64,000 bases of DNA from a phage. This document shows, piece by piece, positions 46,052 through 55,423 of the stretch (position 1 is the first letter of the stretch; each line of letters opens with the position of its first letter). The stretch lies in assembly GCA_024672275.1 (NCBI GenBank), contig GCA_024672275.1_4536.1. One strand, given 5' to 3'. The notes under the pieces were generated by a model. The model saw only the letters and a list, made by a program, of their open reading frames with translations, was not told the origin of the DNA and made no database searches. The position numbers were made by a program, and so were the translations under genes.

Positions 46052-48295
46052 CTACATTTTACAGGCACTACACCCTTCGTCTTCAGAATCTTCTTGTGCT
46101 AAAGAGTCTGCTGATTTTGTTCTACTATTAAGGTAATACAATGACTTGCCACCCAATCTGGCAAAATTCAGAATAAACTGCATCTCAGCTTTCACTGATA
46201 AACGTCCACCTACCAATTTAGAATAATCTAGCCAAGAATCACAAGAAATTCCTTGGTCCGTGAATTTGGTAAAGATACCATACATTTCTGCAAGATCTTT
46301 AGCCGGAGTATCCCAGGCGGATTGGTAGAACATTTTCAGTTTTTCGTAGTCTGGAACAATAAATAATACACTACCTTTCTGACTTTGTTTATACATGATA
46401 GTATCACGAACAGGATACAGAGAGTTAGTAGTATTGCTTACCAAACTGCTGGACTCATTAGGTGCAATAGCAGCCAAAACACTGTTACGGATACCACCTT
46501 GTTCAATGATTTCAGCACGTAAGCCTTCCCAGTCCATTTTAAGATCGAAATTACCGATACTATCTACTGTTTTAGCATAAGTATCAATTGGTAGCCAACC
46601 TTGAGGCCATTTGGTCTTATCGATCCACTCCGCATTACCTTTTTCCTTAGCCAGGCGCAGAGAGGCTTTTGCCAACCAAAAGTAATGACGTTCTGCAAGT
46701 TCATGCATTAATTTTTTAGCATAAGCATCTGAATAATTTACAAAATTACTTGCCAAGTAATGCGCTAAGTTTGTAATGCCTACACCAATAGATCTACGTG
46801 CTTTAGCAGTTATTTCGTTATGTTTAAATGGATAATCCATTGTTTCAATAACGTTGTCAATTGTCAATACAGCGTAGTATGCAACATCTTCATATTCTTC
46901 AGGTAATACACGACCAGCAACAATAGAAGATAAGAAACATAAAGCCAATTCTTGATCTTCAGTATTCTCACCAGTAAAGAGATCCGGCATATTGTGGAAA
47001 GCTTTAGTCGGTAAGAAAATCTCTTGACACAGATTTGATTGATACACCGTATCCAGGAAAGGTGTATGGTTGTTAACGTTGTCAGCAAAGAACATGTAAA
47101 TACGTCCTGTTTCTGCACGTTGAACAATAATCTCTGTCAGAAGATCACGAGCCTTAACAAATTTTTTCTTAATGCGACGACGGCTTACTTTGTCATAAAC
47201 TGCATCAAACTCTTCTTCACTTTTATACAAAGCTTCATAAAGTTCAGGAGCATCATCACAACTAACTAACATCCAATCTTCGTTTTTTGCTGCTCGACGC
47301 AAGAATGAACGGTTAACAACAATAGAATAATCCAGTTTGTCTACTCGTTTATCTATAGGTGTTGTTGGATTCTTCAGTCGAATCAGATCATCAAAGTCTG
47401 GTTCAAGTATGGTGAAGGTAACTGTAGCACTACCTCCACGGCTTGCTTGCTTCGAAGCTCCAACACTATCTTCCATCCATTTCAGATACGGAAGAAGACC
47501 ACCATGAATAATACGATTATTCTTAACACCTTGACCTGTGGCACGAGTTTGAAGATTAACACCAATACCTGCGTTATTCAACGTATACTCATGAGCTAAG
47601 TAGTTAGCAATGGCTAAAGACTCTGCCGTATCGTCTGCACGGAATAAACAACAAGACGCACTTCCTTTGATTGGAGTTCGTAGAGTTGTCAGATACGGCG
47701 ATGGCAGATTAATCTTAAGATCGCTAACATAAGTATAAAGTTTTTTAATATCTTCTATACGGCGTTCTTTTGGTTGGATCTCCATAACCTTCATTGCGAT
47801 ACCAATGAAAAGAAACTGTGGAGACTCATGCACAACATCGTTTACTGCATCTCGAATAAGATATTTATCTACCATCTGACGTAAAACAGAATAACCATAA
47901 GTTAGATTTTTATTATGCTTTACAATCTTACCGATTTCTTTGATCTCTTCATCAGTATAATCCATTTTAGCCCAATGTCCACGTTCTACCATATCATGAT
48001 AAAAGGTATTCAGTGAAGGGATACTGTGGTATCCCCCATGAGCCTGTTTGTAAATCATACCCAGAAGAAGTCTTCCTGCCATATCACTGTAAGCTTGTGT
48101 TTTCTTGTCAATACACGCTGCAATCATTGCTTTATGCAGATCACGTGTAGACACACCGTCATAACACCGCTTCACAGCTTCTAATTCAATTTCAGACCAG
48201 TTTAGTTTACCTGCTGCAAATTCAGACCACTTGCGAAGTTTTTCTGGATTAAACTCCTCTGTCTTACCGTTAGATTTAGTTACAAAACGAATCAA
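46052..48295 (-). CDS. nrdA: ribonucleotide reductase class Ia large subunit NrdA (747 aa)
   Basis: ATP-cone N-terminus (VTKSNGKTEEFNPEK), active-site region SNLCQEIFLPT, C-terminal redox Cys pair CSACKM; TTG start with RBS AGGGAGGAG. Confidence 0.95.
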   Translation of the reverse strand: MIRFVTKSNGKTEEFNPEKLRKWSEFAAGKLNWSEIELEAVKRCYDGVSTRDLHKAMIAACIDKKTQAYSDMAGRLLLGMIYKQAHGGYHSIPSLNTFYHDMVERGHWAKMDYTDEEIKEIGKIVKHNKNLTYGYSVLRQMVDKYLIRDAVNDVVHESPQFLFIGIAMKVMEIQPKERRIEDIKKLYTYVSDLKINLPSPYLTTLRTPIKGSASCCLFRADDTAESLAIANYLAHEYTLNNAGIGVNLQTRATGQGVKNNRIIHGGLLPYLKWMEDSVGASKQASRGGSATVTFTILEPDFDDLIRLKNPTTPIDKRVDKLDYSIVVNRSFLRRAAKNEDWMLVSCDDAPELYEALYKSEEEFDAVYDKVSRRRIKKKFVKARDLLTEIIVQRAETGRIYMFFADNVNNHTPFLDTVYQSNLCQEIFLPTKAFHNMPDLFTGENTEDQELALCFLSSIVAGRVLPEEYEDVAYYAVLTIDNVIETMDYPFKHNEITAKARRSIGVGITNLAHYLASNFVNYSDAYAKKLMHELAERHYFWLAKASLRLAKEKGNAEWIDKTKWPQGWLPIDTYAKTVDSIGNFDLKMDWEGLRAEIIEQGGIRNSVLAAIAPNESSSLVSNTTNSLYPVRDTIMYKQSQKGSVLFIVPDYEKLKMFYQSAWDTPAKDLAEMYGIFTKFTDQGISCDSWLDYSKLVGGRLSVKAEMQFILNFARLGGKSLYYLNSRTKSADSLAQEDSEDEGCSACKM

Positions 48296-52175: not shown

Positions 52176-53135
52176 TTAGATTCCAATAATAGTTGCTGCT
52201 CGTTTATCTTTGGATCTGGTGTTTGCTCTACTACGTGACAAACCTCCACAAGATTCACAACGAATGATATCGAAAGAACTTACCGCAGTGTGGTATTGCT
52301 TACCAGTAACAACGTGAACATGATCACTGCCGCAACGAGAACAACGGACTTTCTCATCTGGGTAATAAGCGGATAAGTTAGGATGCTGTGGAATCCACGG
52401 AAGGATTTTCATATACAAATCACGGAGTGAAACAACATCGCCATCATTGTAAATCTGCATACGTTCAAAAGCATCACGATCACCTTCACAACATGCTTTC
52501 CATAAAGGGAACCCCTCGTTATCCAGTTTTTCACTTTCTGTTTCAAAATACGCTCCCATTTCTTTAAGAGAATTGGAAGGAAGTGCAAACTGTTTCTTAG
52601 CTGCCTTCAAGGTATCAACAACTACATAGTTAGAAGGTGGAGCCATATCATGATATGCGAAGCGTTGGTTAATGTATGCACGGTCAAACTTATACCCGTT
52701 GTGTGCCACAACTACATCTGCCTCGTTCAGAAGGTTCCAAAGATCTTGGCAAAGCTCCCAATCATCCGTATGATCAATATCAAAAAGAGGATAAGAAGAC
52801 AAGTTCTTACCTTCCACTTCGCCAGTATACAGGTCAGCAGAAGAGTAGGATAACAAATAACCTCTGCGAATCACCTGGTCTGGAGAAATGAAGGCTTTGA
52901 ATCGACGGAAAGTATATGCAATCTCTGGTGCAGTTTCAACATCAATAATTTTAATAACTGGTTGTTTCTTTTTAACTGGCTCTTGTTTACTTGCTCCAAA
53001 TCGTGCAAGGAAATCGTTCACTGTGCTTTTTCTTGTTGGACTACCTAAAACAATTGCTGCAATATTACGAGAAGACATACCCTCTGCACTCATACTAAGG
53101 ATATCTGCTTTCTGCTCTTCTGTTAATCTGCTCAC
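52176..53135 (-). CDS. DnaQ-like (DEDD) 3'-5' exonuclease with N-terminal HTH and C-terminal zinc ribbon (319 aa)
   Basis: Exo I IDVETAP, Exo II VVAHNGYKFD, Exo III YNDGD; C-terminal CSRCG...CESCG; GTG start with RBS CAGGAGG. Confidence 0.6.
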   Translation of the reverse strand: MSRLTEEQKADILSMSAEGMSSRNIAAIVLGSPTRKSTVNDFLARFGASKQEPVKKKQPVIKIIDVETAPEIAYTFRRFKAFISPDQVIRRGYLLSYSSADLYTGEVEGKNLSSYPLFDIDHTDDWELCQDLWNLLNEADVVVAHNGYKFDRAYINQRFAYHDMAPPSNYVVVDTLKAAKKQFALPSNSLKEMGAYFETESEKLDNEGFPLWKACCEGDRDAFERMQIYNDGDVVSLRDLYMKILPWIPQHPNLSAYYPDEKVRCSRCGSDHVHVVTGKQYHTAVSSFDIIRCESCGGLSRSRANTRSKDKRAATIIGI

Positions 53136-54250
53136 TCTGCCTCCTGTTGTGAGATGTATGACTGAAGCATACTCTCAAATGTTGTATCGTCATTATCCCA
53201 GCGTTTCATGTATACCAACTGGAAAATTGTTTCTATCCATTCATCTGTTGTCATATGGACTTCTTCTCCATCCCAAGAAGTAAAATTAACACCATCTGGG
53301 AACCACGAGTAGTAAGTATCTTTAACTGTTTGGAAAAGTTCTGCTTGAGTTTTACAAGCTGAAAGAAGATTAAAACAAGTAATATCTCCGAACTTAATAT
53401 CAAAATCTTGATAAGGTCGGATACTATCTGTTTTATCTCCCATTAGCATCTGATATGCTAACCAGTAACTGCCCCAACCTTTAACTTCTTTCTTTTTACC
53501 TTTATCTACAATCCATATATCGCCAATAGACTCGTCAATAAGAATTATATCTGGATTTTTAAATACTCCATCCTCTTTGTAGAAATTAAAAAGGATACTA
53601 GGAGTATGTAAACTATCTTTATCTATAGACACTACGATATAAGAAAATTTACCCGTCCTTTTATAATCTTTATAACCTTGGAAACCATACTTCTCTAACT
53701 CATCGTCAGCCTCTATTACAGTAACAACATCACCATTGTGGAACTCCACAAGATAATCTTTGGTTTCTGAAAGCTGAAGTGGTTTGATATCTAATCGTTC
53801 AGATTTATATTCTACAGGCATTTTGAAGGCGTGTCTGAAAGTTTTTCCTACGCCAATAACTCCGCAATATTTTTCTAAACGTAGATGTTTTAGAATACCT
53901 AAGACTTTTGTTTTAGCTGCTTGGAAGGTGTGTCCGATATCTTCTGGCGGGTATTGCTTATCAATGATTTCGAACTCTTCCTTTGTGAAGGGACGTTTGT
54001 TTTTGGAGGCTCTTTCTGCATTTGTATCTCCTAGCCAACCTCCAATTTTAGTCTTGCTTTTACCCCAAAACTCTGTCTTATTTTTAAATTCCTTTTGAGC
54101 ACCTGAAGGGATGTGCTTCGCAATGATTGTTCTTTTCTCTAACGCAGACGCTGCTTGGAAAGCGATCTGATCATAATCAATTGCAGCTATTGTTTCTTCG
54201 TTGACATATAAATGAAGATCTTCAGGTTTAATTAAAATATAACCGCTAAT
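53132..54250 (-). CDS. T4 RNase H-like 5'-3' exonuclease / flap endonuclease (about 372 aa) with non-canonical start
   Basis: C-terminal half (track ORF 53132..53821) has FEN motifs EADDE, VVSIDKDS, MLMGDKTDSIRPY; 146 stop-free in-frame codons upstream encode N-terminal IAAIDYDQIAF (cf. T4 RNase H ICLIDFSQIAL) but contain no ATG/GTG/TTG; candidate AUU start at 54250 after AGGGGG. Confidence 0.65.
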   Translation of the reverse strand: MSGYILIKPEDLHLYVNEETIAAIDYDQIAFQAASALEKRTIIAKHIPSGAQKEFKNKTEFWGKSKTKIGGWLGDTNAERASKNKRPFTKEEFEIIDKQYPPEDIGHTFQAAKTKVLGILKHLRLEKYCGVIGVGKTFRHAFKMPVEYKSERLDIKPLQLSETKDYLVEFHNGDVVTVIEADDELEKYGFQGYKDYKRTGKFSYIVVSIDKDSLHTPSILFNFYKEDGVFKNPDIILIDESIGDIWIVDKGKKKEVKGWGSYWLAYQMLMGDKTDSIRPYQDFDIKFGDITCFNLLSACKTQAELFQTVKDTYYSWFPDGVNFTSWDGEEVHMTTDEWIETIFQLVYMKRWDNDDTTFESMLQSYISQQEAE

Positions 54251-54262
54251 ATTTCCCCCTAA

Positions 54263-54472
54263 TTATTCATCGTCATCCTCTGTTGAGAATGTTTTAGTAT
54301 ACGGACATTGACGACTTTTCGGGATTGCTATAACTTCATCTTGGTTAGCGTTAGAATAGTAGCAATATTTTGTATTGCCATTAACTTCAGAATCAGACAA
54401 GATTAAAGTAATTTGACCTGCTGCTACTGTGAAACTAAAAGCTAAAAGAACGACTGTCAGAATCTTTTTCAT
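54263..54472 (-). CDS. secreted small protein (69 aa)
   Basis: Signal peptide MKKILTVVLLAFSFTVAAGQ; RBS AGGAGG; stop codon in frame with downstream FEN reading frame. Confidence 0.55.
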   Translation of the reverse strand: MKKILTVVLLAFSFTVAAGQITLILSDSEVNGNTKYCYYSNANQDEVIAIPKSRQCPYTKTFSTEDDDE

Positions 54473-54483
54473 AACGCCTCCTA

Positions 54484-54512
54484 AAAAGCCTACCTCATTA
54501 AGTAGGTAGGCA
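54484..54512 (-). terminator. rho-independent terminator
   Basis: - strand 8-bp stem GCCUACCU/AGGUAGGC followed by UUUUUAGGAGG. Confidence 0.6.
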
Positions 54513-54544
54513 TAATATCATAACTAATCCCGCAAGTCAAGAAC

Positions 54545-55423
54545 TTATTTAAGGATTGTTGCTTTGGTTAAATCTTCCATCAGACCTCGAATCTCATTGA
54601 AGCACAGAAGGACCGAAGCTTCAATACTACCTTCTTCGTCTGCAAAATATTTCGGAAAACGTAGTTTAGAAAGTTTAAACTCTTTATCCACTACAAAATC
54701 TACAACACCGTCATATTCAAGACCGATTGCAACAACATCTTTACCATCTTCTTTTAGTTCGACAGCTTTAGACTCGTATAGGGATTCTTTACTCCAAACA
54801 ACAACGCCCTCGCTATCCTCCATTTTGATATAATTTCCGAGAGTAATACGATCTGCTTCATGATTCTCCAGCAATTCACCAAAACCTTTTACAATAGCTT
54901 CTTCGTGCACACTAAAACCTACCGAAGGGAAAGTCCCCAGAACGGAACGGAGGAAAGAAGTAATCTCTTCTGCAACCTTTTTACTTCCATTAAGAACATA
55001 AAGAAGATTCGTAGTTTTATCCAAGACAACATAGTTAAAGAAATCTTCAGGTTCTGTTTCAGGCAATAGTGCAAATTCAATATCTTCCTTCATTGCTTTG
55101 ACTACTTCTTTATCGACATAAAACTCTTTACCTTCGCTCTCCATGTCCTGACGCATTTCTTCTAGACGTTCATTCAGAATACGTTTAACTTTCTTTTTAT
55201 CTACCTTCTTCACAGATTGACCTACATTAAGTAGTTCAAGATCTGAAAACTCTTTTACAAATTTAGAGTCATCTTCGAAACGAACAAGACCGATAGTGTG
55301 TGACTGGGAGCCTTCTGCTGTTACAAATTCCAGAGGAATATCTGTAATGCTGTTAAGGGATGCTACAGAAGCATTGTCACCAACAACCATAGGCAGAGCG
55401 GATTTAAAAGATTTTACAAACAT
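54545..55423 (-). CDS. RdgC-like recombination-associated protein (292 aa)
   Basis: Size and segment ITSFLRSVLGTFPSVGFS resembling RdgC LALLRKSLGSLPVVPLS; RBS ATAGGAGGAAA. Confidence 0.4.
   Translation of the reverse strand: MFVKSFKSALPMVVGDNASVASLNSITDIPLEFVTAEGSQSHTIGLVRFEDDSKFVKEFSDLELLNVGQSVKKVDKKKVKRILNERLEEMRQDMESEGKEFYVDKEVVKAMKEDIEFALLPETEPEDFFNYVVLDKTTNLLYVLNGSKKVAEEITSFLRSVLGTFPSVGFSVHEEAIVKGFGELLENHEADRITLGNYIKMEDSEGVVVWSKESLYESKAVELKEDGKDVVAIGLEYDGVVDFVVDKEFKLSKLRFPKYFADEEGSIEASVLLCFNEIRGLMEDLTKATILK

Follow-up and report, generated by a model that had tools for sequence, protein, structure and literature searches.

When all 64 codons were measured as translation starts in Escherichia coli by Hecht et al., AUA, AUC, AUU and CUG formed a near-cognate group at 1–2% of AUG, below GUG and UUG, which reach 10% of AUG or more (bioRxiv 10.1101/063800). 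Confirmed AUU starts in E. coli are limited to two genes, infC and pcnB (bioRxiv 10.1101/063800). Near-cognate starts are repressed by IF3, and infC, which uses ATT in E. coli, has retained either ATT or ATC in distantly related bacteria, with ATC found in Streptomyces (PMC5472188). The Streptomyces gene sigR begins with GTC behind an extended ribosome-binding site (RBS); this start is IF3-repressed, conserved across species and systematically mis-annotated, and it sets the protein level relative to a co-transcribed partner (PMC5472188). The present analysis concerns a flap endonuclease (FEN) gene of the 5'-3' exonuclease family on the minus strand of a 64,000-nucleotide stretch of phage DNA (GenBank assembly GCA_024672275.1, contig GCA_024672275.1_4536.1; hereafter the window). 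Its 372-residue product is very probably translated from an AUU codon at position 54250, as judged from the sequence of the locus and of its relatives.

The four codons seen at this start among related phages (ATT, ATC, ATA and CTG) are exactly the 1–2% near-cognate group of Hecht et al. Similar to infC and pcnB, the FEN gene places AUU behind a Shine-Dalgarno (SD) sequence, would be expected to undergo weak, IF3-repressed translation, and retains a non-canonical codon in its orthologues. In contrast to these genes, FEN is a phage nuclease of DNA metabolism with no obvious autoregulatory logic, its IF3 dependence would follow by analogy, and its start drifts among ATT, ATC, ATA and CTG within a single gene family. 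The likeness to sigR lies in the pairing of a non-canonical start with a strong RBS, whereas the codon, organism and gene class differ, and for sigR both the start and its repression by IF3 have been shown experimentally. Read in this way, the locus is a new, well-conserved example of the mechanism known from infC and pcnB and not a new mechanism. It would add a phage-encoded, evolutionarily conserved case to the AUU class, and its natural ATT, ATC, ATA and CTG variants would offer a ready system for studies of near-cognate initiation, IF3 discrimination and control of nuclease dosage during infection.

Anatomy of the Open Frame

Translation of the single frame 54475..53132 on the minus strand reveals an open frame of 376 sense codons that runs from a TAA (54265..54263) to a TGA (53134..53132). 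The listed open reading frame (ORF) of 229 amino acids (53132..53821, minus strand), which starts with the ATG at 53821, lies at the 3' end of this far longer frame (region 52900..54700, minus strand). The elements of the locus are as follows.

53132..54250, minus strand: proposed full-length flap endonuclease / 5'-3' exonuclease coding sequence (CDS), 372 codons from ATT 54250 to the stop TGA at 53134..53132
54248..54250, minus strand: ATT, the proposed AUU initiation codon and the sole in-frame table-11 start codon at the usual SD spacing of this phage
54255..54260, minus strand: Shine-Dalgarno sequence AGGGGG, read directly in the sequence and separated from the ATT by AAAT (4 nt)
54263..54472, minus strand: upstream 69-amino-acid signal-peptide gene, phrog_4641 (ORF list and PHROG match), with its TAA stop 12 nt before the ATT
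54170..54178, minus strand: codons GAT TAT GAT for D25-Y26-D27, a conserved acidic motif that ends the first core β-strand
53819..53821, minus strand: internal ATG (Met144), the start codon used in most database records

The frame opens four codons 5' of ATT 54250, and its first ATG, GTG or TTG is codon 144, which lies 143 codons past the ATT. A preliminary description of the locus, made from the sequence, had remarked on the AGGGGG followed after four nucleotides by ATT 54250 and on the frame that opens directly behind the upstream TAA; both can be read in the sequence. It had also described a stretch upstream of ATG 53821 that is free of stops and of ATG, GTG and TTG and that encodes the segment IAAIDYDQIAF. 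This description is accurate except for the length of the stretch, which is 147 codons (from TAA 54265..54263 to ATG 53821) and not 146. Likewise, the annotated ORF does hold just the C-terminal part of the protein, but this part amounts to 229 of 372 residues (62%) instead of the half that had been stated. At the base composition of the window, 147 successive codons would be free of stops by chance with a probability of ~4.5e-5, and frames as long as 376 codons account for 2 of the 7128 stop-to-stop runs in the window. The ATG at 53821 has no SD sequence in the bases immediately upstream (...CGCCTTCAAA). The homologue of the 69-amino-acid upstream gene in phage phi92 is gp086, which is annotated with a signal peptide.

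A megablast search with the region returned 48 records at ≥99% identity and 17 more at 95–99%, from phAPEC8-like phages (Stephanstirmvirinae, Phapecoctavirus). In the N-terminal part of the phAPEC8-type gene (53822..54247, minus strand), none of the 142 codons is ATG, GTG or TTG, against a coding background of 4.9% in the window (P ~7.5e-4). Other lineages carry between one and six canonical start codons in this part of the gene, so the idea that such codons are selected against was rejected, and their total absence is specific to this lineage. Gene callers truncate the phAPEC8-type gene most severely because its N-terminal part lacks ATG, GTG and TTG.

The Probable Start Site in Related Phages

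The comparison of the start region among relatives that the preliminary description had proposed was carried out on sequences gathered from GenBank phages, IMG/VR, JGI/ENA metagenomes and Logan assemblies, each anchored on the conserved DYDQ motif. The resulting set comprises 35 distinct 66-nt contexts, taken from isolates as well as metagenomes, in which protein identity falls to as little as ~50%. At the codon aligned with ATT 54250, these contexts contain ATT (18), ATC (10), ATA (6) or CTG (1), and ATG, GTG and TTG do not occur. A GGAGG/GGGGG core ends 4 nt before this codon in 25 contexts and 5 nt before it in the other 10. Within the SD core, two positions are always G (2.0 bits), while the bases of the spacer vary freely and third-position wobble is seen from codon 2 onward. 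These start regions lend support to AUU initiation, the option that the preliminary description had ranked first. An exact-pattern scan of IMG/VR gave a concordant count, with six versions carrying ATH (H = A, C or T) and none carrying ATG.

Several contexts delimit the start from the upstream side. In four of them (loci L013/L032, L112, L113 and L115), an in-frame TAA stands immediately 5' of the ATC, so that nothing farther upstream can be in frame there. In the phAPEC8-like phages 536P1 and PNJ1809-36, an extra G in the SD run puts the upstream gene out of frame and leaves the frame of the ATT intact. The first canonical codon in relatives falls at various other positions, from 6 to 80, and not at Met144. 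The SD sequence and ATT or ATA are retained in a clade at 53–57% identity (L197 ~374-410, L198 ~43-75, L199 ~374-404).

The sister group, Vequintavirinae, provides canonical starts at the same alignment position: ATG in Certrevirus, TTG in rV5-like phages and GTG in SSE121/PVP-SE1-like phages. The start of these canonical-start homologues aligns as M-G-Y-P with I-(S)-G-Y-I. The spacing at the FEN gene is also that of the phage itself, as GGAGG/GGGGG followed by 4 nt and ATG is the commonest arrangement among ORFs of at least 80 codons in the window (17 of 30). Apart from the FEN ATT, every SD-anchored non-canonical codon in the window adjoins a canonical start.

Coding Constraint and Identity of the Enzyme

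Searches with the 372-residue protein recover relatives along its whole length. In tblastn, phi92-type phages match residues 1–370 at 78% identity, Vequintavirinae match residues 1–363 at 37–42% identity, and ICP1-, PAK_P5- and PB1-like phages match over nearly the full length. The PHROG family phrog_107 ('exonuclease') matches residues 10–367 at 1.4e-55, and the N-terminal 143 residues alone match it at 5e-7. Between lineages, codons 2–143 differ at a proportion of 0.09–0.34 of nonsynonymous sites (pN) and 0.70–0.90 of synonymous sites (pS), which shows this part of the gene to be under purifying selection. The first 24 codons follow a like pattern, for example pS 0.38 and pN 0.06 against L190. 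Because synonymous sites are saturated in most pairs, pN and pS are given in place of dN/dS, with a few ratios of 0.04–0.15. Felix O1-type phages, which matched only residues 147–359, were considered as a natural short form of the enzyme and rejected, as their gene is a normal 346-amino-acid CDS with a divergent N-terminus.

The structure of the protein was modelled with AlphaFold2 from an alignment of 50 sequences. The model (mean pLDDT 95.8, pTM 0.89) is a single compact domain into which residues 5–141 are integrated, with a strand at residues 16–25 followed by a helix at residues 26–37. The acidic residues E180, D182, D183, D210, D212, D272 and D275 are invariant in the 50 sequences and D25 and D27 are nearly so; the latter pair does not vary at all in alignment A1 and hardly varies in alignment A2. 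We infer that these side chains correspond to the metal-binding carboxylates of the T5 and T4 active sites. The 229-residue product lacks D25 and D27 as well as the modelled strands 16–25, 39–46, 93–100 and 127–137. No canonical start codon lies in frame upstream of D25/D27 and these core strands.

The window protein has no match to PF02739 in Pfam, even at an E-value of 0.1, whereas 15 of the 50 aligned relatives match this family (best 1.7e-6). No sequence link to the PDB was found by phmmer or by profile search, and a fold comparison was consequently needed. This comparison identified a PIN-like 5'-nuclease fold, which confirms at the level of the fold the FEN / RNase H-type identity given in the preliminary description. 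Relative to T5 D15, T4 RNase H and E. coli ExoIX (PF02739), the window protein is ~100 residues longer and contains insertions, and its similarity to them lies below Pfam detection.

Probable Initiation at AUU and Alternative Explanations

The arrangement of the locus, its conservation, the constraint on its codons and the fold of its product are shown by the data above, and they make the following mechanism the most likely. The AGGGGG sequence, at the 4-nt spacing that is standard in this phage, would set the P site of the 30S subunit on the AUU, which initiator fMet-tRNA would read with a mismatch at the third position. Near-cognate starts operate in E. coli at ~1–2% of AUG and under repression by IF3, and translation is consequently expected to be low and IF3-sensitive despite the strong SD sequence. 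The low dosage would probably limit a potentially harmful 5' nuclease that is made from an mRNA common to its neighbours. The AUU start may in addition be supplied by ribosomes that terminate on the small upstream gene, 12 nt away. The tendency of the sister subfamily toward weak starts (TTG, GTG) would thereby be carried farther in the FEN gene of these phages. No additional element of the start was found: a search of the window for a phage tRNA that might decode the codon found no tRNA genes, 80-nt segments spanning the start, folded for five lineages, gave z-scores of -1.1 to +1.6 with nothing significant, and a recurring weak pairing between the SD sequence and a downstream CCU was no better than in shuffled sequence.

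Several points weigh against initiation at AUU. The codon pattern is no proof when taken alone, as ATT, ATC and ATA are equally expected of a conserved isoleucine sense codon; the claim of a start consequently relies on the SD sequence, the stop codons that precede the codon and the homologues whose canonical starts align with it. By comparison with E. coli genes the spacer of 4 nt is short, though it is the norm in this phage. The clade at 53–57% identity has a conserved in-frame ATG 10–11 codons downstream with no SD sequence (...TIS-M-[DSE][DE]L), and this may be a second or alternative start in that clade. That a toxic nuclease is kept at low expression is a rationale that we infer. Finally, the literature yielded neither ribosome profiling nor N-terminal proteomics on these phages as direct evidence of translation.

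Among the alternatives, one variant, compatible with a start at 54250, keeps the same AUU and has it reached mostly by termination and reinitiation, which would tie nuclease output to translation of the 69-amino-acid gene. This is possible, if on the doubtful side. In 33 of 34 contexts, an upstream ORF of ≥45 codons terminates 8–20 nt short of the start, often with a stop that overlaps the SD sequence (e.g., TAGGAGG), and a consensus scan of the coding strand found no terminator or good promoter between the 69-amino-acid and FEN genes. Reinitiation in E. coli is known to use the initiator tRNA and to be affected by IF2 and IF3 (PMC2268962); another paper, on reinitiation at non-canonical codons (PMC4648390), concerns eukaryotes and was set aside. 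However, genes usually lie close together in these genomes, which makes the geometry unspecific, and the SD sequence and ATT are retained both in L193 (67% identity; 197-317), where 119 nt separate the upstream small ORF from them, and in L197, where a methyltransferase gene lies upstream. The conservation of a strong SD sequence instead suggests that de novo binding of the 30S subunit is important. Moving the start slightly downstream, to another non-canonical codon such as the ATT at codon 5 or 7, is improbable. Several in-frame ATT and ATA codons do occur within the first seven codons, but they lie ≥16 nt from the SD sequence, whereas the spacing from the SD sequence to the first codon is fixed at 4–5 nt in all 35 contexts; moreover, the downstream isoleucine codons are not conserved in the 50–57% clade, and codons 2–4 vary at the third position as codons do.

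The remaining two explanations would dispense with initiation at AUU. An error of sequencing or assembly that removed a canonical start, or decay of the gene to a pseudogene that yields only the 229-residue product from ATG 53821, might be read from the database records, most of which annotate the 229-amino-acid ORF alone, and from the remark of the phi92 annotators, 'No RBS identified; weak Prodigal statistics'. This explanation is very unlikely given that 54 records share the 60-nt start region at 100% identity and 127 contain a recognisable version of it, that the same or nearly the same sequence is found in 65 independently sequenced phAPEC8-like genomes, and that the arrangement recurs in other genera and is seen in more than 100 independent genomes in all. 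The constraint on codons 2–143 between lineages with saturated synonymous sites speaks against decay, and the short product would be without D25/D27 and four modelled strands and would begin at an ATG that has no SD sequence and that in relatives is preceded by other canonical codons. Read-through of the upstream TAA, by which the nuclease would be an extension of the signal-peptide protein, had also been offered in the preliminary description and is exceedingly improbable. In the window both ORFs share one frame with a single TAA between them, and a metagenome gene caller produced a 444-amino-acid fusion (P0005); yet a common frame is found in only 17 of 34 contexts, and several of these 17 contain further in-frame stops. 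Two in-frame stops occur in four contexts, the extra G of 536P1 and PNJ1809-36 lies between the stop and the ATT, and in phi92 the upstream gene is in a different frame with an additional in-frame TGA. It would also make no biological sense for a DNA nuclease to carry a signal peptide. The P0005 fusion itself (L189 401-1735, a contig of Logan SRR30397360), which was translated with Gln at the junction, proved to be a gene-caller artefact, as the DNA has TAG at this point; the caller apparently used an amber-recoded genetic code on this contig.

If initiation at AUU is accepted, the near-cognate start could be a regulatory device that does more than keep expression low, with nuclease synthesis tracking the initiation-fidelity state of the host (the ratio of IF3 to ribosomes) or the translation of the upstream gene during infection, as IF3 and ribosomes delivered from that gene would both gate the start. 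We regard this extension as rather unlikely. Were it correct, the start would time or dose the 5' nuclease for replication or recombination, and the family-wide drift of the codon within the 1–2% class, alongside GTG, TTG and ATG among the sister phages, would be the mark of stabilising selection for a fixed rate of translation.

Annotation in Database Records

ESCO13 (KX552041.2), whose 60-nt start region is identical to that of the window, is the one record in which the CDS (AQM50955.1) is annotated from the same ATT, together with an RBS feature. The ESCO13 genome announcement is silent on the ATT start (PMC5374246), and no published description of this start codon was found in the literature, ESCO13 being an annotation only. 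In every other Stephanstirmvirinae record inspected, including RefSeq phAPEC8 and phi92, the exonuclease CDS is truncated or split, because standard gene callers accept only ATG, GTG and TTG. Among these phAPEC8-, phi92- and FBKp34-type records the CDS starts farther downstream, except in vB_Eco_PATM, where the gene is split and an antisense ORF (PATM_014) has been added. RefSeq phAPEC8, iGC_PHA_EC001 and EF1-1 annotate the 229-amino-acid ORF only. The phi92 homologue is annotated from a GTG inside the DYDQV motif, in the record that carries the remark quoted above, while the FBKp34 and KP13-16 records use a TTG three codons before the DYDQV motif. Some of the affected records fill the apparent gap with spurious small ORFs. 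In RefSeq phAPEC8, for instance, a 40-amino-acid hypothetical ORF (G377_gp266) is placed in another frame within the FEN N-terminal coding region (53899..54021, minus strand) and is probably spurious. A practical use of the finding is thus to put right the CDS in most related genome records, and the true gene boundary matters for the engineering of therapeutic phAPEC8- and phi92-type phages.

The host labels of seven records look doubtful, because their phi92- or phAPEC8-type sequence is nearly identical to that of the coliphages described here. They are the 'Campylobacter phage' records A150, A145, B15, C3 and A110a (MG065639, MG065645, MG065650, MG065656 and MG065689), 'Pseudomonas phage PsgM04F' (OR584014) and 'Klebsiella phage ZCKP1' (MH252123).

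Neighbouring Features

Two further elements flank the 69-amino-acid and FEN genes.

54488..54540, minus strand: promoter-like site TTGACT-17-TATTAT with TG, strong and sigma-70-like (consensus match only)
53133..53135, minus strand: GTG start of the downstream DnaQ-like exonuclease-subunit gene, which overlaps the FEN stop (GTGA); Pfam RNase_H_2 match at 9.5e-10

The promoter-like site is directly followed by a GC-rich hairpin of 8 bp with a T-run, and then by the SD sequence and ATG of the 69-amino-acid gene. A transcript covering the small gene, the FEN gene and the exonuclease-subunit gene probably begins at this site, and the region resembles a terminator, a promoter and a 5' stem-loop in one. 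Comparable elements are annotated in related records: ASO2A has a terminator and FBKp34 a promoter. Other genes of the nearby replication module also have weak starts: the DnaQ-like gene begins with the GTG listed above, and a 747-codon ORF on the minus strand begins with a TTG at 48295, located 5 nt after GGAGG.

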